Positions 23,230 to 33,371 of a stretch of 55,925 nt of DNA are shown here, in pieces; the first letter of the stretch is position 1, and the number at the start of each line of letters is the position of its first letter. The stretch comes from an uncultured Bacilli bacterium (GTDB taxonomy: Bacteria; Bacillota_I; Bacilli_A; RFN20; CAG-826): positions 1 through 55,925 of the forward strand of contig CALVLC010000024.1 in NCBI GenBank assembly GCA_944336335.1, given 5' to 3'. Below the pieces are notes generated by a model. The model was given only the letters and a program-made list of their open reading frames with translations, did not search any database and had not been told where the DNA came from. Made by a program: the position numbers and the translations under genes.

Positions 23230-24158
23230 ACGCCTGCAAAAGTCTTACCTTCATTATAAAAACTTAAAAACTTTTCTTCTAAAGTGACTTTAACCTCTTT
23301 AAAATCAGTAATTTTGTGTTTAGTTAAGATACTAAGAAATTTGTCTGTGTCATTAGCGTTAATGCTTATTTTAACTTCTAATCTATCCTTATGAACTTCG
23401 TTAAAAGTATATAACCTAAAATTTCTTAAAAAAGAATTAAGGCCATTAAGAGATGCAAAAGTTATTAAATAAGTTTTAGTCGTGGAATCCAAAAAATCAC
23501 TTTCAGCAAATTCAGAAACAATTTTCCCATCTTTAATTATTCCAATTCGATTACATGTATCATGAACTTCATTAAATAAATGCGAAGAAAAAAGAATTGT
23601 TTTTCCTCTTCTTTTCTCTTCATTAATGAAATTAATAAATTCCTGTTGCATTCCAATATCTAAACCACTAGTTGGTTCATCTAAAATCAAAATATCAGGG
23701 TCATTCATAAAGCAATTTAAAATTGCTAATCGTCTTTTCATGCCTAGAGACATTTCAGAGCAGCGTAAGTCTAAAACAACATTAAACCTTTTTATTATTT
23801 TTTCGGCAAAGTCAAAATTTTCAATTCTTTTTAGGTGAGCTTGCATCTTATAAAACTCATATCCTGTTAAGCCTAATGGCAAAGCTATTTCACCTGGTAA
23901 ATAACCAACTTCCATAAAAATTTTATCATGATATTGAATTGGATCTTGCCCATTTATTAAACATTTTCCACTATCAGGTTTAGAAAAGCCCATTAGATGT
24001 CGAATTGTTGTGCTTTTACCAGCGCCATTAGGTCCTAAAAAACCATAACAATCGCCACTATTTATTGTGAAAGAAATATCAAAAACCCCTCTACCATGTC
24101 CGTAATTTTTAACAAAATTAATTACTTCAATTTTATTGACATTCTCTATATCTTTCAT
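23226..24158 (-). CDS. ABC transporter ATP-binding protein
   Basis: GPNGAGKS, MSLGMKRR, ILDEPTSGLD, SSH. Confidence 0.95.
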   Translation of the reverse strand: MKDIENVNKIEVINFVKNYGHGRGVFDISFTINSGDCYGFLGPNGAGKSTTIRHLMGFSKPDSGKCLINGQDPIQYHDKIFMEVGYLPGEIALPLGLTGYEFYKMQAHLKRIENFDFAEKIIKRFNVVLDLRCSEMSLGMKRRLAILNCFMNDPDILILDEPTSGLDIGMQQEFINFINEEKRRGKTILFSSHLFNEVHDTCNRIGIIKDGKIVSEFAESDFLDSTTKTYLITFASLNGLNSFLRNFRLYTFNEVHKDRLEVKISINANDTDKFLSILTKHKITDFKEVKVTLEEKFLSFYNEGKTFAGV

Positions 24159-24164
24159 ATAATA

Positions 24165-24198
24165 AATTTACTACAGTTAATTATTTAACTCAAGTTAA
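24165..24198 (-). promoter_or_regulatory. Promoter of the ABC operon with overlapping candidate TetR operator
   Basis: TTGAGT-N17-TAAATT 6 nt before the ATG; palindromes GTTAA-N4-TTAAC (24176-24189) and TTAAC-N4-GTTAA (24185-24198). Confidence 0.5.
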
Positions 24199-24215
24199 TC
24201 TAAAAGGGGTTTACA

Positions 24216-24764
24216 ATGGATTCCAGAAGAAGTCGAACTAAACATATAATAGCTAAAGCATTCATAAGTCTTTTGAATGAAAAAGATTACGATTCAGTTA
24301 GAATTATTGAAATTTGCGAAAAAGCAATGTTATCAAAAGTGACTTTTTACAATAATTTCAAAAACAAAAGACAACTTCTAAATTACATTTTGCTTAATTT
24401 TGAAGACAAAATTAAAAAGGAGATTTCTGAATTTTCGTCTCGTCGTCAATCCACAAAAGATGCTATTTACGGAATTGTGAAAATTACATACAGAAATATT
24501 TTAAACAATCAAGATATGCTTCAAAAACTCTTACTTTCTAGAAATGCTTCCATAGCGTTTTTAGAATTGAGAGACTTTATTTATGTAGAAATCTTAAAGA
24601 ACGTTAATTCTTTACAACCTGAAGATAAAAGAAAAATACCAAAGGAATATTTCGCAGCATTTTATAGTGGCGCAATTGCAAGCATTCTACCGATGATTCT
24701 TACTACTTCAATAGATAAAGGCCCTATTTTAGATGAATCATTGCTAGTAAAATTGTTTAGTTAA
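24216..24764 (+). CDS. TetR/AcrR family transcriptional regulator
   Basis: N-terminal HTH (RTKHIIAKAF..ICEKAMLSKVTFYNNFKNK); divergent from the ABC operon. Confidence 0.92.
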   Translation: MDSRRSRTKHIIAKAFISLLNEKDYDSVRIIEICEKAMLSKVTFYNNFKNKRQLLNYILLNFEDKIKKEISEFSSRRQSTKDAIYGIVKITYRNILNNQDMLQKLLLSRNASIAFLELRDFIYVEILKNVNSLQPEDKRKIPKEYFAAFYSGAIASILPMILTTSIDKGPILDESLLVKLFS

Positions 24765-24856
24765 TACTCTATCCTTCCTGAAATTATCCGATATTTTTGC
24801 GTACATTTATTTTTGAATGACACATTTTCTTGTTTAAACTTTAGTTAACAAATTTG

Positions 24857-24885
24857 TTGCATTGTGCTTTTTACTTGTGTAACAT
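24857..24885 (+). promoter_or_regulatory. Probable promoter of tRNA-Thr
   Basis: TTGCAT-N17-TAACAT, 11 nt upstream of the tRNA. Confidence 0.55.
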
Positions 24886-24896
24886 AATAGAGTCTC

Positions 24897-24970
24897 GCAA
24901 TAGTAGTTAAATGGTATAACGGATCCATGGTAAGGATCTATTCGTAGTTCGATTCTGCGCTATTGCACCA
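24897..24970 (+). tRNA. tRNA-Thr(GGT)
   Basis: GCAATAG/CTATTGC acceptor, GATCC-AT GGT AA-GGATC anticodon arm, CGTAG-TTCGATT-CTGCG T arm, ACCA. Confidence 0.95.
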
Positions 24971-24982
24971 CATTATGTATCG

Positions 24983-25005
24983 AAGACTGGGAGACCAGTC
25001 TTTTT
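24983..25005 (+). terminator. Intrinsic terminator after tRNA-Thr
   Basis: AAGACTGG-GAGA-CCAGTCTT running into a T tract. Confidence 0.85.
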
Positions 25006-25068
25006 ATGTGGTGCATAGCGCAGTATCGAAACCCTTCCCAATCTACAGCCTTATACCATTTAACTACT
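25006..25068 (-). pseudogene. Inverted tRNA-Thr-derived sequence lacking the anticodon arm
   Basis: Minus strand AGTAGTTAAATGGTATAA (exact D-arm copy), then 20 unrelated nt, then TTCGATACTGCGCTATGCACCACAT (T loop, 3' acceptor strand, CCA). Confidence 0.75.
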
Positions 25069-25154
25069 TCCATGTTCGACTCCTTCCTTAAAATAATAGA
25101 AACAGAAAGTTTGAACAAGATTGAACCTATCGGATTTTCCTCTTCATTTATATT

Positions 25155-26438
25155 TTAAAATAGACTCAACTGTTCGTGTCTTTCTTGTCTGACAAATTTT
25201 TTAGGGTTTAATTTACATGTTTTAATGCAGTAATTTAACAAATTTTTAGCTGCATTAATATCTCTATCAGCTTTAAAACCACATTCACATTCAATTTCAT
25301 CTTTAAAAGCATCCCAATTATGCATTTCTTTATGCAGTTTTCCACAGTTCGAACAAATTTGACTAGATTTAAAATATCTATCTGCCTTAATTAAGGTTCT
25401 ATTATATTTACTGGCCTTTATTTCAAGAGCATGAAAGAAAGACGAGAGCCTCGACTTATTCACTTGTGTTCTCAAATTTATATTTTCATACATTTCTTCG
25501 ATTGAAATGTTTTCAATACAAATATACTGGTATTTCTTGCATATAACTTCAGCAATCTGATTATATTGATATATCCTATAGTTCGTTAATTTTTCAAAAG
25601 CTCTTGTTAATTTATATAGTAATCTTTTAACATTTTTAGAATTTTTATTATTACCATTCTTTTTTAAAGTTTCACGATAAAATTGCCTTATTTTGACTAT
25701 TCGGTCCATTCCGGAATCAAGAACTTTTTTATCTAAATTATATTTAGCAATACTTTCATCAGAACCTGCCACAGTAATATTTGTTCTTATGCCAACATCA
25801 ATTCCACAAGCTAGAGCTTCAGGACTAACATCTTCTCTTCTTTTATAATAAATACATCTTAAATAGTATCTACCTTCTGATTTAATAAGAACAAACTTGT
25901 TGTAATTCCTAGAGTTCAAGTTTTTAGGCCTTACTTTAATCTTAATAGAACGTAAATTAAAAACGGCGTGGTTATCGATAATTTTTAACGATCTTCCAGT
26001 TAATTTAATAACTTCTTTTTCATACTCAATAATCGAATAATTCGGTTGTTTTTTAACATAATTTCGCAACTTTTTGCTTTCAAAAAGTGAAAATGCTCTG
26101 TCCGCAACATTAGCAAAATGATCTAAATAAAGATAATTAGAAAAAGTATATCTTTTAGATTCTCTAAATTTTTTAAACATTCCAAAAACAAAAGGTCTTA
26201 GTTCACTACTTGGAATATTGTTATAATATGGATTATAAGCCACAAAACGAGTTTTGATTTCTTTATATACGTACTTTTTTAACCTATGATAAAAATCAAA
26301 TTCACGATCAAGAAATTTCACTTCTTTTTTTGTTGGATAAAGTCGATATGTATCAACTTTTAAATAAATCGGTTCTCTCATAATATTTTTTAAGATAGGC
26401 AACATTGCGCGATAACATCGCTTAGTTTCTTCAACCAT
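25155..26438 (-). CDS. tnpB: TnpB/Cas12f-like RNA-guided endonuclease, catalytic triad intact (paralog A)
   Basis: YRLYPT N-terminal motif, RuvC-I GIDVG (D214), RuvC-II ICIEN (E309), SSQICSNCG..CECG zinc finger, RuvC-III DRDINAAKNL (D393). Start may be Met20 (26381) by comparison with the paralog. Confidence 0.92.
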   Translation of the reverse strand: MVEETKRCYRAMLPILKNIMREPIYLKVDTYRLYPTKKEVKFLDREFDFYHRLKKYVYKEIKTRFVAYNPYYNNIPSSELRPFVFGMFKKFRESKRYTFSNYLYLDHFANVADRAFSLFESKKLRNYVKKQPNYSIIEYEKEVIKLTGRSLKIIDNHAVFNLRSIKIKVRPKNLNSRNYNKFVLIKSEGRYYLRCIYYKRREDVSPEALACGIDVGIRTNITVAGSDESIAKYNLDKKVLDSGMDRIVKIRQFYRETLKKNGNNKNSKNVKRLLYKLTRAFEKLTNYRIYQYNQIAEVICKKYQYICIENISIEEMYENINLRTQVNKSRLSSFFHALEIKASKYNRTLIKADRYFKSSQICSNCGKLHKEMHNWDAFKDEIECECGFKADRDINAAKNLLNYCIKTCKLNPKKFVRQERHEQLSLF

Positions 26439-26460
26439 AACGCGCCAATCGCGCGCTTAT
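26405..26460 (-). ncRNA. Candidate structured RNA/ssDNA element at the 5' end of tnpB paralog A
   Basis: GC-rich island with hairpins ATAAGCGCGC-GATTG-GCGCGTTAT and GCGAT-GTT-ATCGC; shares blocks with 27885-27937. Confidence 0.45.
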
Positions 26461-26652
26461 TTACTTTCTTTTAAAAGATTTCAATTAATAAATATAAATT
26501 AAATAAAATGCCTAGTAGAGGTTATTAATGAACAAAAGTAAGAAGAAAAATAGATTCTAATATTTTAAATTTTGAGATAGCACTAAAGCACATCAGCTTA
26601 ATTAATGCTGTTTCTTCGTTTTATTTATTAAACATAAATTCATTGATGTTTT

Positions 26653-27855
26653 TTAGAAAAGCTCAAGTTGTTTTACATTCTCTTTTTTGAAGAAAAAACG
26701 GTTTTTCAATCCACATTTATTAATTAAATAAGAAAGAAGATTAATTCCGGCGTTTAAATCTTTATCAACTGTTGCCCCACAATCACAATGTAAAATGTTT
26801 GATGAATCATCATGAGTTAAAGCTCCGCATTCATGACAAATTTTTCCAATATCATATCCTAAATCGACATAAACTATTTTGGTGTTAAACTTTTCCGTAT
26901 AATGATTCAAGCTTTTATAAAATTCATTAAATAAGTATTTTTCAATAATTGTTTTCTGACTATTATTATAAAAATAGTTAAGATTTGCAGGTTTTTGTAT
27001 AGAAATATAATCGTATTTTTTAACAATATCTAATATCACTCTAGTATATTTTTGCCTTATTTTTCTTCTTAATTTTTCATAACAATCATCCGATTTTCTT
27101 TCTAGACGTAAAACATTATTTGATCTAAATCCACCATTATGCTTAAGACATTGTTTATGATATGTAGCAATTTTTACTAGGCGATCAATATTATAACTTT
27201 CACTCTTAAGTTCAAGATTATAAGTGGTGAAATTGTTATTTGAATCATAAACTTTAATTGATGAAAAATCACTAATAACAATTGAAGCTTCAATTTCCTC
27301 TTTTGCGTCTAAAATCTTTTCTTTATACGTTTGCCCAAATAGATAAAATTCATTATTTCTTTTCTCAACATAAAGATATCGGAAATTTCTAAAATTTTTA
27401 TTTTTAGGACTGATTTTTCCCTTTATTTTGCAGTTTAGGAACTCAACATTTTGCCATCCCATTTTAAAACTTTCTCGATCAAAACGAATTACACTACTTG
27501 AATTATAAAATGGATAATTTGTAAGTTTGACTTCTTCTTTATCTTTTTTAAGTTCAAACCTTTGAAACATTTTGAAAGATGCGAAATCAAAATGGTCAAT
27601 ATATGAATAGGAAGAGAAATCATAACGCTTACTTTCTTTAAATCTTTTTATAATTCCATATACGAGTGGTCTTAAAGAAGATGGTGCTATCCTTTTTTCA
27701 CCACCTGTAATATTGAATTTTTCTTTAATCTTTTTAGTCAAAAATTTTGTTAAACGGTCTAGAAATCTGAATTCTCGATCTAATTTTGCCTTTTCCTCTT
27801 TCGTCAAAATTAGACGAAAATGTTCAAAGTCCATATAAATATTGTCTAATTTCAT
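26653..27855 (-). CDS. TnpB-like protein, predicted nuclease-dead (paralog B)
   Basis: Collinear with paralog A (LDREF, LRP, ESKRY.FS.Y.Y.DHF, DR.VKI); zinc finger CHEC..CDCG and DKDLNAGINL kept, but RuvC-I reads ASIVISD and RuvC-II reads ISIQK. Confidence 0.85.
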   Translation of the reverse strand: MKLDNIYMDFEHFRLILTKEEKAKLDREFRFLDRLTKFLTKKIKEKFNITGGEKRIAPSSLRPLVYGIIKRFKESKRYDFSSYSYIDHFDFASFKMFQRFELKKDKEEVKLTNYPFYNSSSVIRFDRESFKMGWQNVEFLNCKIKGKISPKNKNFRNFRYLYVEKRNNEFYLFGQTYKEKILDAKEEIEASIVISDFSSIKVYDSNNNFTTYNLELKSESYNIDRLVKIATYHKQCLKHNGGFRSNNVLRLERKSDDCYEKLRRKIRQKYTRVILDIVKKYDYISIQKPANLNYFYNNSQKTIIEKYLFNEFYKSLNHYTEKFNTKIVYVDLGYDIGKICHECGALTHDDSSNILHCDCGATVDKDLNAGINLLSYLINKCGLKNRFFFKKENVKQLELF

Positions 27856-27864
27856 TGTTTAAAT

Positions 27865-27946
27865 GAGTATTATTATAAAAGTTGTTGTGTGTTTCCACTT
27901 AGCATCTTCTGCCTTAACGCCTCAACCATGCGCTTATAATAACCTC
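27865..27946 (-). ncRNA. Candidate structured RNA leader of tnpB paralog B
   Basis: Closing stem GAGGTTATTATAA..TTATAATAATACTC enclosing ATAAGCGC-ATGGTTGA..CTAA-GTG-GAAA-CAC-ACAA. Confidence 0.45.
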
Positions 27947-28017
27947 TTAATTCCTCCTTTCACTAATATAAAGGAGTTTGTTTCAAAAAAATTAAAAGAT
28001 TTTTAAAAAAAATTAAA

Positions 28018-30624
28018 CTATTCATTATTTCTTAAAATTTCAATTGGTTTATTTCTTTTGATGACTATATAAGGGATTAATAAAGCAATTAAAATATAGA
28101 GCAAGATGAATAAAGCTAAAACAATGGTTGAAGCAAAATTATAATATAAGAAATTTAAGCCTGGTAAAGCACCATATCCTAAATAGCGTTCGACGCTTTC
28201 AATTAATATTCCATTACAAAGGTTATTTCCTAAATAAGTTCCAATAAAAAGAAAGGCACAAGATAAAATCATCATCACAATCAATGTATTAACATAAAGT
28301 TTATTAATTTGTGAGATTTGTAATCCTAAAGCCCTAAAGATTCCAATATTGCTCTTATCTTTTCTTAAAATAAGGAAAACTACTAAAATAACAAAGAAAA
28401 ACGCAAGAACAAGCATTACAATTAATAGAATTTGGAATATATCAGCAAAAAGCAAAATAACTTCTTCAGCTCTAAAATAAACCATATCCATTAGATATTG
28501 AGAACTTAACTCTTTTTCTCTCATCAAACTTATAAGTTCATCGCTCAAATTATAATCTTCAAAATATAGTCTAATCGGTGTATAAGATGCTAGTAAAATC
28601 TCTTTAAATAATTCGGGCGAGACATATATTTTCTCCACACCGGTTAAAGGAAACAAGTTTATAATTTTCAGATTATCGTAAGAAATTTTTGGAGAATCAG
28701 AGAAATAGCTTGTAAAACTTCTTAACGTGATATTGGCATTTTTATATTCATTTTCATCAACCTCAGAAATATTCTTGTAATCTTTATCTGTTAAAATATT
28801 TAGAAGGTCCAAATTTAACTTAATTTCATTGCCTTTGATATCGTGGTCAAAACTTATTCTTAAGTCAGTGAAATCAAATTGTATTTCTTTGTCATTAAAT
28901 ACAATATTATTTTTATTAAAATAGGCATCGAATTTTAAATCGTCGCCCTGCAGCACTAAATCAACATAATCATTAATAAAATTAGGATTTATGCTAAATA
29001 AAGACGAATAATAATCAAATAGCTCATCATAAAACGCAGAAGCATCGTTTACTTCATCCCCATGTTCAATAATTTCAGAAATTTCACTAGCAAATTTTTC
29101 TTCATAATTAGTATCAATAACTGCATCCACTTTAAGCCCAAAATCAAATTCAAAATTTAAAATTTCTTCGTAGGTGGTAGGTGGTGCTACAGAGGAAAAT
29201 TTATCATACGCAAAGCAATCGGCCATATAATCAGTAATTATTACACCGGCAGAATGCTCTTTAATTTCTCCTGCCGCAAGAGTCAATTCACCCTTTTCAT
29301 TACCAAATAATTTTTTTAAATAGTTTAAATCACAAATAATCGCTCCATTTGTTTGATTATATAAATATGGACGTGAAATGTAAGACTTTTTTCCTGATTG
29401 TCTTTCGCGTGCGCCATAATAGAATAAAGAAACTGGATACATTTTATAAACTTTTCCATCATAACTTTTTTCTATTTCATCAATGTCACTTTCGGGAATT
29501 TCTTCAAGAGAAGTAATTCCTTTTTCTTCTTCGCTGATGGTTTTATATTTTCCAAAAACTGGAGCAGAACCATTTCCATACATTTCTAGTGCATAGTTTT
29601 GTCTACTTTCTTCACAGTTATAAATCGACAAATTATATCCAATATTTCCTACAACAAGTAAAAATGCAACTATAAAGCTCATCAAAACAACAAAAAAAGA
29701 TCTCTTGAGCAAAAATTTATAACTATATTTAAAAAGTCCAGCACCTTTAATTTTATTAACGCTAACTTCTTCACTTTTATAATTTTCACTTTTCGTAGTA
29801 GAAAAGTTATAGCCGTTTTGATAAATATGAGTGTTTGGATTCTTCGAATAATAATTTAATAATTTTAATTCGTTATAATTTAAAGATTTGTTGAATGGAA
29901 GGTATGAATTCCCATAACTATCAACAAAAAAAGCATTTTTCTGACTTCCATTTTTGCTTAAATCACTAATAATTTTTCCATCTTGTAATGTAATAATTCT
30001 ATCTGCATAACTATATGCATCATCTTGATTGTGGGTCACCATTACAATCAACATTTCTTTCGAATATTTTTCGAGGATATTCAAAATCAAAAGCGATGTG
30101 CTATGATCGACATTGCCAGTTGGTTCATCAGCAAAAAGCACCCTTGGTTTTTTAATAAGTGCTCTCAACAAGGAAACCCTAGCCCTTTCTCCTGCTGAAA
30201 GTTCACTTGGATACTTTTTTAAATAATCTTCGTGAAGTCCAAATTCTTTTAAATAATCTCGAAAAACCTGCAAATCTAAGGTTTTTTCTGAAATATCAAG
30301 TACGATTTTTAAGTTGTCTAATACTGTAAGCTCTTCTACTAAAGCATCGCGCTGAAAAGCGAATCCGAAATCGGTATTTCTTAAAACTGTTTTTTCTTTT
30401 TCACTTAATGCATCGTAATCTAGACCATTATAAGAAATTTTTCCTTTTGTTTTTGCATCTAATGTTGAAAGAACATTTAAAAAAGTTGACTTTCCGCAAC
30501 CTGATTTACCTAAAACAATAACAAAACCTTTGTTTGGTAAAGTTAATGAAACATTAGATAAAGCCACCGTCTTTATCTTTTTTGTACTATTATATATTTT
30601 TGTTAAATCTTCAATTTGAAGCAT
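28018..30624 (-). CDS. ABC transporter ATPase-permease fusion (MacB/FtsX-like)
   Basis: GKSGCGKS, LSAGE, FADEPTG, VTH; C-terminal IGIFRALG FtsX motif and TM helices. Confidence 0.9.
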   Translation of the reverse strand: MLQIEDLTKIYNSTKKIKTVALSNVSLTLPNKGFVIVLGKSGCGKSTFLNVLSTLDAKTKGKISYNGLDYDALSEKEKTVLRNTDFGFAFQRDALVEELTVLDNLKIVLDISEKTLDLQVFRDYLKEFGLHEDYLKKYPSELSAGERARVSLLRALIKKPRVLFADEPTGNVDHSTSLLILNILEKYSKEMLIVMVTHNQDDAYSYADRIITLQDGKIISDLSKNGSQKNAFFVDSYGNSYLPFNKSLNYNELKLLNYYSKNPNTHIYQNGYNFSTTKSENYKSEEVSVNKIKGAGLFKYSYKFLLKRSFFVVLMSFIVAFLLVVGNIGYNLSIYNCEESRQNYALEMYGNGSAPVFGKYKTISEEEKGITSLEEIPESDIDEIEKSYDGKVYKMYPVSLFYYGARERQSGKKSYISRPYLYNQTNGAIICDLNYLKKLFGNEKGELTLAAGEIKEHSAGVIITDYMADCFAYDKFSSVAPPTTYEEILNFEFDFGLKVDAVIDTNYEEKFASEISEIIEHGDEVNDASAFYDELFDYYSSLFSINPNFINDYVDLVLQGDDLKFDAYFNKNNIVFNDKEIQFDFTDLRISFDHDIKGNEIKLNLDLLNILTDKDYKNISEVDENEYKNANITLRSFTSYFSDSPKISYDNLKIINLFPLTGVEKIYVSPELFKEILLASYTPIRLYFEDYNLSDELISLMREKELSSQYLMDMVYFRAEEVILLFADIFQILLIVMLVLAFFFVILVVFLILRKDKSNIGIFRALGLQISQINKLYVNTLIVMMILSCAFLFIGTYLGNNLCNGILIESVERYLGYGALPGLNFLYYNFASTIVLALFILLYILIALLIPYIVIKRNKPIEILRNNE

Positions 30625-30627
30625 AGT

Positions 30628-31926
30628 CTAAGTTAAATCAATTTCTTCAACTAGCAAATCATAAACAAATGAATTAGTAACTTTAACATCTATTACATCT
30701 CCAACTTGATGTTCTTTTTTCTTTAATAAAATAACTTTTCCATCAACATCATCTGGAGCATTAAAATCGCAACTTAATAAATATTCATTATTTTTTTCTG
30801 CAATTACTAAAGCCTTAAATTCTCTTCCGATCATTTCTTTATTAAGTGAGTAAGAAATTTTAGCCTGCATCTCCATGATTTCTTGTTTTCTTTTAATCAT
30901 TGTTGATTCTCTAACTTGATGAGGAAGTGAATATGCTCTAGTTCCTTCTTCTCTAGAATAAGTAAAAACACCTAAATGGTTAAACTTAAATTCATTAATA
31001 AATGATTTAAGTTCTTCAAATTCTTTCTTAGTTTCTCCTGGGAAGCCAACAATTAGAGTCGTTCTTAAAATAGCGTCTGGAATTTCTTTTTTTATTTTCT
31101 TTAAAAGCTCAATGATTGTTTCTTTATCATCTTTACGATTCATGGCTTTTAATAAACGATTATTTACATGCTGCAAAGGAATATCAAAATAATGTGAGCA
31201 CTTTGGATGTGTCTTTATAAATTCAATAAGTTCATCATTAATTCCTTCAGGATATAAATATAAAGTTTTGATAAATTCAATCTCAGGAATTTCATTTAAT
31301 TCTCTCAATAAGTCTACTAAACTAAGCTTTTTTCCTTTAAAATCCTTACCATAACTTGTTGGATCTTGAGCAATTAGGACTAATTCTTTGACGCCATGTT
31401 TAGCTACTTTTTTAGCATACTCCACTAACTCATCTAATGGATAAGAAACAAATCTACCTCTTATATAAGGAATTGCACAATAAGCACAAAATTTATTACA
31501 TCCTTCGGCTATTTTTAGATAAGTTATAGCTTTATCATTGTTAATTCTTTCACTAATATCAAAAGCTGGTAAAGTAACCTCATCATCGAATAATTTTGAA
31601 ATTAACCCTGGAAGTTTTGTATATTCATCTTTAAAAGGAATCCATAAATCAACTTCAGGAATTGCTTCTTTAAGTTCATCAAAATATCTTTCAACTAAGC
31701 AGCCCACAACAAATGTTTTCTTTTTATAAGTCAAACAATCTAAGATTGTATCGATATTTTCTTTTTTCGCACTTAAAATAAAGCCACAAGTATTAATAAT
31801 AATGGCATCTGCTTCTTCTAATGAAGATGTAATCTCAAAATAAGGCTTTTTAAAAAGCGCCAATATAGCTTCACTATCAACTTGGTTTTTAGCGCATCCT
31901 AAAGACACTAAAGCAATTTTCTTCAT
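30628..31926 (-). CDS. rimO: Ribosomal protein S12 methylthiotransferase
   Basis: SLGCAKNQVDSE, NTCGFI, EGCNKFCAYC, APDDVDG in the TRAM domain. Confidence 0.94.
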   Translation of the reverse strand: MKKIALVSLGCAKNQVDSEAILALFKKPYFEITSSLEEADAIIINTCGFILSAKKENIDTILDCLTYKKKTFVVGCLVERYFDELKEAIPEVDLWIPFKDEYTKLPGLISKLFDDEVTLPAFDISERINNDKAITYLKIAEGCNKFCAYCAIPYIRGRFVSYPLDELVEYAKKVAKHGVKELVLIAQDPTSYGKDFKGKKLSLVDLLRELNEIPEIEFIKTLYLYPEGINDELIEFIKTHPKCSHYFDIPLQHVNNRLLKAMNRKDDKETIIELLKKIKKEIPDAILRTTLIVGFPGETKKEFEELKSFINEFKFNHLGVFTYSREEGTRAYSLPHQVRESTMIKRKQEIMEMQAKISYSLNKEMIGREFKALVIAEKNNEYLLSCDFNAPDDVDGKVILLKKKEHQVGDVIDVKVTNSFVYDLLVEEIDLT

Positions 31927-33371
31927 CTATTAAATTTCTTATTTAAATTCTTGATAAATGGTAAAACTTCAACAAATTCAGTGAAATCTACTAATTTATA
32001 TTCCCAGTTTTGTCCACCTAAAACTCCTGGAATATTCATTCTAGAATCATTATCTTTCCACAAATAATCTTGCATTGGGATAATCGCAGTATCGCAAATT
32101 GATCCAAAAATCATATTAAAGAACTTTTCTTTAATACTTCTTCCCTTAACGCCTTCTCTTCTCATAATAATTTTAAGAAGTTCAAGTTCGTTATCTTTTA
32201 AATTTTTGTACCAACCTCTTAATGTATCGTTATCATGTGTTCCAGAATAGATAATTTGATTTTCTTTAACCTCAAATGTTGGGTTAAAAATAGTGAATTC
32301 TAAAACATTCATGCCTTTAAGGTTATATTTGTCTCTTAATTCAAGAACACTAGGGAATAAATCACCTAAATCTTCAGCAATAATGTTAATTTCAGGGTGT
32401 TTTGAGTATAAAAGATTGAATAATTCGTCACCATAAGCATGTTTCCACTCACCTTGAATAGCTGTATTGCAATCTCTATCAACTTGCCAATATGTATCAA
32501 AAGCTCTGAAGTGATCGATACGAATAATATCAAAAAGTGATGCGGCGAACTCAATTCTTTCCATCCAGAAAGTGAATCCCTCTTCTTTCATATATTCCCA
32601 ATCATAAATTGGATTTCCCCATCTTTGACCAGTTTCAGAGAAATAATCTGGTGGTACCCCAGCTACAACTTCAGGAATATCATTTTCATCAAGTTTAAAT
32701 TCATCTTGATTTGCCCAACAATCACTGCTGTTTCCACCAACATAAAATGGAATGTCGCCCATTAATGAAACACCATTTTTATTGATATATTCTTTTAACT
32801 TTTTGAATTGTTTAAAAGCAATAAATTGGCACCACTCTAAAAATAAAATTTCTTCTTCATATGGTGTAAAGTCAAATTCATGACGATAATGAGCATATCT
32901 TTCTTTTTTATCCCAATACCACCAATCTTGATAGTTATTTTTCAAACTTAAAATAGTGAATTGAGCATAATCTTCGACCCATGGGTTTTCTTTTACAAAA
33001 TTCTTAAATGGAGCCTTAACTAAAGCACCTTTGCTATTTTCGAAAGCCTCTCTTAAATATTTTTCTTTATGAGCACGAACAGCTGGGTAATCGACCAACT
33101 TTTTACTTTTATTAAAAGGTTTTAAATCGTCGATTAATCCTTCTTTTTCAAGTTCGTGTAAATCAATATAAATTGAGTCAATAGCGTGACCGCAAATTGA
33201 TTGATAAGGACTATTTCCATAACCTGTTGGATTAAGTGGGAGGATTTGCCAAATTTTAATATTTGCTTTTTTTAAATAATCAACAAATTTATAAGCATTC
33301 TCCCCGAAATCTCCAATCCCAAAATCTCCAGGAAGTGAGCTTATTGCCATTAATATTCCATTAGTTCTCAT
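31923..33371 (-). CDS. malQ: 4-alpha-glucanotransferase (GH77)
   Basis: WQILPL, GVPPDYFSETGQRWGNP, RIDHFR, AEDLG, THDNDT. Confidence 0.97.
   Translation of the reverse strand: MRTNGILMAISSLPGDFGIGDFGENAYKFVDYLKKANIKIWQILPLNPTGYGNSPYQSICGHAIDSIYIDLHELEKEGLIDDLKPFNKSKKLVDYPAVRAHKEKYLREAFENSKGALVKAPFKNFVKENPWVEDYAQFTILSLKNNYQDWWYWDKKERYAHYRHEFDFTPYEEEILFLEWCQFIAFKQFKKLKEYINKNGVSLMGDIPFYVGGNSSDCWANQDEFKLDENDIPEVVAGVPPDYFSETGQRWGNPIYDWEYMKEEGFTFWMERIEFAASLFDIIRIDHFRAFDTYWQVDRDCNTAIQGEWKHAYGDELFNLLYSKHPEINIIAEDLGDLFPSVLELRDKYNLKGMNVLEFTIFNPTFEVKENQIIYSGTHDNDTLRGWYKNLKDNELELLKIIMRREGVKGRSIKEKFFNMIFGSICDTAIIPMQDYLWKDNDSRMNIPGVLGGQNWEYKLVDFTEFVEVLPFIKNLNKKFNR

Follow-up and report, generated by a model that had tools for sequence, protein, structure and literature searches.

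A TnpB-like gene family resident in one genus of Bacilli encodes proteins with a putative sliding clamp-binding motif at the C-terminus

We analysed a stretch of 55,925 nucleotides from an uncultured Bacilli bacterium (contig CALVLC010000024.1 of assembly GCA_944336335.1), hereafter called the window, and the genome to which it belongs (G000). The window encodes two neighbouring TnpB-like genes on the minus strand, here named A and B, and both encoded proteins terminate in a QLxLF peptide. This tail probably represents a functional clamp-binding motif that tethers A- and B-type proteins to the beta sliding clamp DnaN on DNA, and we put the probability of this reading at roughly 0.7. The two genes and the relevant parts of their tails are:

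25155..26438, minus strand: gene A, TnpB-like, 427 amino acids, with an intact RuvC triad (D214/E309/D393) and a CxxC...CxC zinc finger
25158..25172, minus strand: codons of QLSLF, the putative clamp-binding motif of A (residues 423-427)
25173..25217, minus strand: linker of A (residues 408-422), variable in sequence, which joins the last RuvC helix to the motif; 0 of 15 positions invariant in the clade; the predicted local distance difference test score (pLDDT) drops past residue 407
26653..27855, minus strand: gene B, TnpB-like, of the putatively nuclease-dead 'B type', 400 amino acids, with zinc finger and RuvC-III Asp kept
26656..26670, minus strand: codons of QLELF, the putative clamp-binding motif of B (residues 396-400)

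The C-terminus of A reads ...VRQERHEQLSLF (ending in HEQLSLF) and is followed by TAA at 25155-25157, and that of B reads ...KKENVKQLELF and is followed by TAA at 26653-26655. Both endings, as given in a preliminary description of this DNA, could be read directly from the open reading frames (ORFs), which were unchanged when translated with table 4. The G+C content was 29% for the window and 32% for the genome. A and B shared 34% identity (139 of 412 positions, E 9e-61). Pfam domain PF07282 (Cas12f1-like TNB) was found in A with 60.9 bits and in B with 33.1 bits (cut-off 26.3), and PF01385 (OrfB_IS605) matched A with 29.5 bits, slightly below the cut-off of 30.5, with no match for B. An AlphaFold2 model of A, built on an alignment of 16 rows, reached a mean pLDDT of 78.5 and a predicted TM-score of 0.67, and its top Foldseek match was the ISDra2 TnpB (8h1j_A, E 3.9e-18, TMt 0.75). 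The 77 matches at E<=0.001 were led by TnpB (ISFba1 TnpB), Fanzor2 and Cas12f. The final helix of the model comprises residues 392-407; about 20 last residues lie beyond it, and the motif lies 34 residues past the RuvC-III Asp (D393), so that the previously stated tail length of about 25 residues after RuvC-III was roughly right. Residues 417-427 showed pLDDT values below 50 and the tail is predicted to be disordered; residues 1-22 also had low pLDDT. Homology between A and its orthologs and genome matches starts near residue 21. Because the ATG at 26438 falls within an RNA element described below, the true start of A is probably the ATG at 26378 (M21).

A and B belong to a family that stands apart from ordinary TnpBs, with E-values falling from 1e-43 to 1e-22 and a family branch length of 2.11. 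The motif was counted in 30 different family proteins whose C-terminus is known, a gene at a contig end and short fragments (e.g. P0122) being excluded. Among these, 18 carried Q[LM]xLF, two a degenerate GNLLFD and ten no motif. In clade I, which consists of 15 distinct proteins including the A and B lineages, the motif was present in all 15, and Q423, L424, L426 and F427 were invariant. Invariant positions in this clade thus amounted to 4 of 5 in the motif, 0 of 15 in the linker and 44 of 407 in the folded body (binomial P 5e-4). As the clade I proteins are 34-67% identical to A, the motif is indeed conserved despite low overall identity, as had been proposed. Some of them extend 1-10 residues beyond the motif (QLSLFDFSEDSINN, QLSLFG), which is usual for clamp-binding motifs. 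The motif was kept along the long B branch (1.86 substitutions per site in the tree), and three deep relatives with 24-26% identity to B also have it at their C-terminus (P0130, QLRLF; P0132, QMSLF; P0134, QMSLFDTQ). A survey of TnpB C-termini, also proposed in the preliminary description, located the motif in part of this family, whereas Q[LM]x[LIVM]F was found in the last 25 residues of 0 of 399 non-family TnpBs in our sample (0 of 248 proteins, 0 of 74 genome-locus ORFs and 0 of 77 metagenome-locus ORFs). A search with residues 384-427 of A alone retrieved just two proteins out of four candidates. None of the 80 loci kept from a metagenome scan belonged to the family, and a scan of genome contigs found at least two members, both already-known loci (G018 and G031).

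We also scanned the last 15 residues of all stop-to-stop ORFs of at least 100 amino acids (n=1750) in the 2.0-Mb genome G000. The strict pattern QLxLF was observed four times compared with 0.22 expected (Poisson 8e-5), and the broader pattern Q[LM]x[LIVM]F five times compared with 0.75 expected (Poisson 1e-3). A and B are paralogs and therefore do not represent two independent occurrences in this count. The five motif bearers were A, B, PolC, a superfamily 1 (SF1) helicase and a DnaB-family helicase, and judged by sequence all five are of DNA replication or repair type. PolC (NF001688, 1669 bits) terminates in DQLSLFDFM. The SF1 helicase of about 1000 amino acids (contig 57:2057-5149, minus strand, locus L111) terminates in EQLSLFD and is likely another clamp client, and the DnaB-family helicase (contig 114:1-777, plus strand, locus L113) has QLDIF ten residues before its C-terminus. 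No clamp motif was present in the IS607-type TnpB of this genome (contig 45). On the two helicases we further observed that the SF1 protein weakly matches IGHMBP2/RecD2 as well as ProA and Hhe, two models of anti-phage helicases, and that the DnaB-family gene is clipped by the contig start and has a phage-type DnaB as its best model.

The likeness to PolC was also seen in other species of the genus. PolC ends in DQLSLFDFM in G000 and its six closest species, and of 30 genus loci examined, 18 encode a PolC whose tail fits Q[LM]x[LIVM]F. In G029, G076 and G025 the TnpB-like protein has QLSLFDF in its tail, seven residues identical to the PolC of those genomes. For Bacillus subtilis, the sections of PMC12309361 available to us describe that the C-terminal QLSLF peptide of PolC binds DnaN. 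They also report that QLSLF put in DnaE, as a peptide with DnaE flanks, binds DnaN with a dissociation constant of about 7 uM, like the native PolC context, and that DnaE with the transplanted QLSLF shows raised colocalisation with the replisome. According to parts of PMC12309361 and PMC4549789 the clamp-binding consensus is near QL[S/D]LF, and the tails of A and B fit it with their terminal QLSLF and QLELF, the former lying on a tail of low pLDDT.

The DnaN of G000 (contig 33:10204-11325, 374 amino acids) adjoins dnaA and is an ordinary beta clamp, whose relatives in PDB include 4tr6 (1.2e-49) and the clamp-MutL fusion 6e8d. A structure model with DnaN, one of the checks suggested in the preliminary description, was computed from a DnaN alignment of 30 rows and residues 390-427 of A in three runs with three controls. 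The model placed A residues 419-427 on DnaN with scores of 0.62, 0.62 and 0.61, compared with 0.01 for the best control and 0.01 with DnaN swapped for an unrelated protein. Of 157 solved complexes 116 attain the mark used for such scores, as do 2 of 215 mismatched pairs, but these counts apply only roughly here, our own alignments having been used. The runs shared at least 88% of contacts with a partner pLDDT of at least 61. On the DnaN side the modelled interface comprises residues 180, 182-185, 248, 250, 253, 283-286, 303, 325, 327, 351, 353, 367 and 369-374. We take the pocket of the Escherichia coli clamp to be formed by T172-L177, P242-V247 and the C-terminal P363-L366, and the modelled interface would accordingly be the canonical peptide site.

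Several points weigh against a clamp tether. Clamp binding of the A and B tails is a prediction, and the passing of the model may reflect memory, clamp-peptide complexes being solved; it speaks for likeness, not for binding. The ten family proteins without the motif include the syntenic orthologs of more distant species (among them G018, G027, G008, G031, G073 and G068), and the motif is degenerate (GNLLFD) in G026. The absence from orthologs that the preliminary description had named as an argument against its own proposal was therefore found in one part of the family. Since a sister clade at the same chromosomal site does without it, the motif is dispensable for the core function of the family. 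The conservation within clade I is partly due to shared descent, and the 399 non-family TnpBs were a non-random sample, chosen by likeness to A and B or to a RuvC-III peptide pattern. Finally, guidance by RNA is suggested by the fold and a co-occurring RNA, and genome matching found neither a guide nor a target. Of the proposed tethering to the clamp, the part that found support in silico is thus QLxLF as a putative clamp-binding motif (conservation, genome specificity, match to PolC, disorder and the complex model). Physical binding to DnaN would be in line with the model, and the proteins might be coupled to replication forks or repair gaps.

QLxLF might instead be a linear motif for another partner, for example a degradation tag for an AAA+ protease, a contact to the protein's own RNA or to another protein copy, or an autoinhibitory plug, its likeness to clamp peptides then being coincidental. 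C-terminal hydrophobic peptides serve many partners in general, and both the dispensability of the motif in the sister clade and the predicted nature of clamp binding leave room for this explanation. However, coincidence would have to account for a QLSLFDF that repeats the same seven residues as the PolC of the same genomes, for the remaining bearers in the proteome being replication-type proteins, and for a model that docks residues 419-427 on DnaN and drops to 0.01 with an unrelated protein in its place. We therefore consider another partner unlikely.

The proteins that carry this motif turned out to be encoded by a TnpB-derived resident chromosomal gene family in one genus of small-genome, AT-rich Bacilli, and they are not ordinary insertion-sequence TnpBs. 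The designation of A and B as TnpB paralogs was correct with regard to the TnpB-like fold and domains, but not in the sense of a transposon TnpB, as the genes occupy a fixed locus, are single-copy in relatives and lack a TnpA. In all 13 loci of relatives the gene follows orthologs of the window genes for MalQ (31923-33371) and a radical S-adenosylmethionine (SAM) methylthiotransferase (30628-31926). Where the contig continues, the family gene precedes a tRNA-Thr(GGT), a TetR gene and genes for ATP-binding cassette (ABC) transporters. No TnpA was found at any of these 13 syntenic loci. Family members were encoded in 16 of 60 species genomes of the genus, as a single copy in 15 of the 16 and in two copies only in G000. 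All 13 species that are nearest to G000 in PolC (identity at least 71%) are among the 16 bearers, which points to vertical descent. None of the 24 genomes from other families of the order matched the family, and phages and plasmids yielded no close relative, the matches listed having at most about 28% identity and ending near residue 400-412. Identity to the window was 57-92% for flanking genes and only 30-67% for the TnpB-like proteins. The N-terminal helix-turn-helix domain PF12323, which is present in most other hits, was not detected in A and B. The only other TnpB-like gene in G000 is the IS607-type copy (contig 45:3933-7508, L003), which follows a serine recombinase and has no 5' RNA. 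In the window this site shows the following features:

24897..24970, plus strand: tRNA-Thr(GGT), convergent with A, marking the conserved chromosomal site of the family
25015..25068, minus strand: degenerate copy resembling tRNA-Thr, in the orientation of A, lying between the A stop and a shared hairpin and T-run

A and B are related but not equivalent, which limits their description as paralogs. In B the RuvC-I Asp is replaced by Ile and the RuvC-II Glu by Gln, while the RuvC-III Asp is kept. B-type relatives L235 and L237 have V/I at RuvC-I, P0121 likewise lacks the full D-E-D triad, and P0121 and G069 additionally have Asn at RuvC-III. A-type relatives possess the D-E-D triad. As far as can be told from these residues, B represents a nuclease-dead lineage. 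In G067 and G069, the pair of species nearest to G000 (flanking genes 88-92% identical, PolC C-terminal region 96% and 94% identical), a B-type gene occupies the syntenic site and no other family member is present; both genes keep the zinc-finger cysteines and the motif (QLSLFG and QLQLFA). Because B types lose the catalytic residues and keep the motif, clade I retains the clamp motif better than the catalytic residues. The A type occurs alone in G075, G076, G029 and G025, and the nearest A-type relative is that of G075 with 66% identity.

Contigs from two other runs bridge the tRNA, A and B with about 0.5% differences (X1 record 1, 23500-27900; X3 record 10, 24912-27978), and the tandem is therefore not an assembly artefact. 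A gene for an 868-amino-acid fused ABC ATPase and FtsX-like permease (28018-30624, minus strand) lies between the radical-SAM gene and B. This gene is absent from the site in 13 of 13 relatives' loci and thus appears to have been inserted with, or beside, the second TnpB-like copy. The clamp is homodimeric, and A and B are neighbours in the same orientation, both with the motif, so that a single clamp dimer might bind the two proteins in its two pockets and the two might act as a pair. This would be compatible with a clamp tether. Yet G000 alone among the 16 bearer genomes (60 searched) has two copies, and B occurs without A and A without B in the relatives named above. Each type therefore functions without the other, a pair is not needed, and we regard it as quite improbable.

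Directly 5' of the family genes and on the gene strand we found a conserved RNA element of about 93 nt with three hairpins and conserved linkers, which is present twice in the window:

26374..26466, minus strand: structured RNA with three hairpins 5' of A (match 26375-26466, E 5.6e-17)
27851..27943, minus strand: the same RNA element 5' of B (E 7.2e-15)

Hairpin P1 of this element (26441-26455) is a GC-only stem of 5 bp (CGCGC...GCGCG) inside a region of 29% G+C. RNAalifold predicted a structure of -13.06 kcal/mol for the sense strand, with compensatory changes in 10 of 13 pairs, compared with -6.45 and 8 pairs for the antisense strand, where G-U pairs turn into C-A. Paired cells made up 92.8% in the RNA alignment versus 74.2 +/- 1.9 in shuffles (0 of 500 as high) and 29-46% in slid controls. 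With a covariance model the RNA was detected in 15 of the 60 genus genomes, all 15 of which encode the protein, and in 0 of 44 protein-less genomes; in the sixteenth bearer (G001) the family gene begins at the contig end. There were 16 more copies of the RNA in 14 relatives (L272-L292), not counting a weak match (E 0.004) in G026 (L293), and tandem copies occurred in G029 (3), G076 (2), G068 (2) and G026 (2). Rfam recognised only tRNAs in the window, and at E<=1 it had no match to the 5' element in any of 12 loci. The element could be a guide scaffold in an unusual position or a regulatory, possibly autoregulatory, leader. As for an omega-RNA at the 3' end, the downstream DNA was unalignable beyond the tRNA-like piece and the terminator (A versus G075; B versus G067 and G069). 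In the search for guides and targets, sequence 3' of A and B gave genome matches at an 18-mer of tRNA-Thr and otherwise only AT-rich ones at chance level, and the sequence after the distal RNA copies of G029 and G076 had no other match at up to 2 mismatches. That the motif is a leftover of ancestry without peptide function, A and B being paralogs, or reflects a nucleotide-level constraint like that on classical TnpB genes, whose 3' end overlaps the omega-RNA, is very improbable, given that the choice among synonymous codons varies freely at each of the four conserved positions (in eight genes CAA/CAG for Gln, four and five codons for the two Leu and TTT/TTC for Phe), so that the constraint concerns the peptide rather than an RNA that overlaps it, that the adjacent linker has no invariant position, and that the downstream DNA is unconserved and the RNA of the family lies 5' of the gene.

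If the motif serves as a clamp tether, the flexible tail of about 20 residues, ending in a peptide common to the host PolC (QLSLFDF), would occupy the hydrophobic pocket of DnaN that lies between its domains II and III, and the protein would be tethered to DNA-loaded clamps. DNA search, and cutting by the A type or binding by the B type, would then be concentrated on replicating or newly replicated DNA. The B type would bind without cutting and might compete with PolC. On RNA guidance and on the biological purpose of the tether we infer more tentatively. A possible picture, which we hold with much less confidence than the clamp tether itself, is that of a TnpB derivative kept by its host and passed on vertically, which rides the clamp via a tail copied from PolC and acts, with its own structured 5' RNA, as an RNA-guided factor for replicating DNA. 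The A type could in this case provide replication-coupled defence against replicating foreign DNA or start recombination, and the B type could bind DNA in a sequence-directed manner while tethered to the clamp, or compete with PolC.

Compared with TnpB of IS200/IS605 elements (ISDra2, PDB 8h1j/8exa), the family shares the fold and PF07282, and the A type also the RuvC D-E-D triad and the zinc finger. Unlike these elements, the family has no TnpA, is single-copy at one syntenic site in one genus, and combines a 5' RNA with the lack of a conserved 3' RNA, the lack of PF12323 and a C-terminal clamp motif. B resembles the TldR proteins, nuclease-dead TnpB-like repressors (10.1101/2023.11.30.569447, 10.64898/2026.09.22.753285, both in the portions available), in its lost RuvC catalytic residues, its intact single-copy chromosomal gene and its conserved RNA. 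TldR is described there with a truncated C-terminal region, whereas in B the zinc finger is retained and the tail is complete, including the putative clamp motif. A further difference is that no guide or promoter target for B was found by genome match search. The words 'clamp', 'DnaN' and 'replication' are absent from the accessible part of the 2026 TldR preprint (10.64898/2026.09.22.753285).

Clamp-binding motifs have been described before in transposition proteins, namely for peptides from nine insertion sequence (IS) families and Tn7 TnsE (Gomez et al. 2014, PMC3971601), for full-length IS1634 transposase and its clamp binding (PMC4549789) and, by two-hybrid, for the interaction of IS608 TnpA with DnaN (PMC5027513), as far as the excerpts of these papers go. 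In the excerpt of Gomez et al. (PMC3971601) it is also remarked, not as an experiment, that a 'putative motif' at the C-terminus of IS200/IS605 OrfB (an older name for TnpB) occurs in Cyanobacteria and 'seems absent in other phyla'. We found no motif in the five cyanobacterial TnpB loci that we examined. With the transposition proteins of the quoted parts of PMC3971601 and PMC5027513 the A/B family has in common that a mobile-element-type protein bears a Qxx(L/M)xF-type motif. It differs from the transposase peptides of PMC3971601 in its occurrence in a genus of Bacilli, its domestication, its PolC-matching tail and its nuclease-dead lineage that retains the motif. The pentapeptide QLSLF is identical to that at the C-terminus of B. 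subtilis PolC (PMC12309361, in part), but in A and B the motif sits on an unrelated TnpB-like fold and not on a polymerase. Full-text literature searches retrieved no study of TnpB binding the sliding clamp among the texts they covered. The principle of clamp motifs in transposition proteins is thus already known, and new are the domesticated TnpB lineage, its nuclease-dead branch, its own RNA and the presence on it of the polymerase's clamp handle.

Cas12 descends from TnpB, which is also a compact tool for genome editing and about whose ties to host machinery little is known. A clamp tether in the A/B family would be the first natural link of the TnpB/Cas12 lineage to the replisome clamp, and would show how RNA-guided proteins can be directed to replication forks or newly made DNA. 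It would also fit a role proposed for TnpB in replication-linked transposon retention. Besides the TldR repressors, the family would then represent a second route of TnpB domestication, and its five residues would suggest themselves as a simple tag with which engineered nucleases could be directed to replicating DNA. The previously unreported companion RNA offers a direct handle for experiments.

A scan for promoters and terminators gave no useful signal, with 21 promoter-like sites compared with 20.3 expected. The degenerate tRNA-Thr-like copy was not called by ARAGORN or as an Rfam tRNA. It was considered as a guide of A, against which stand the missing tRNA call and the different arrangement in G029. 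The copy is linked to the neighbouring tRNA-Thr by inverted repeats I10 and I24 and an inverted, exact match of 18 nt, and it is conserved in G075.

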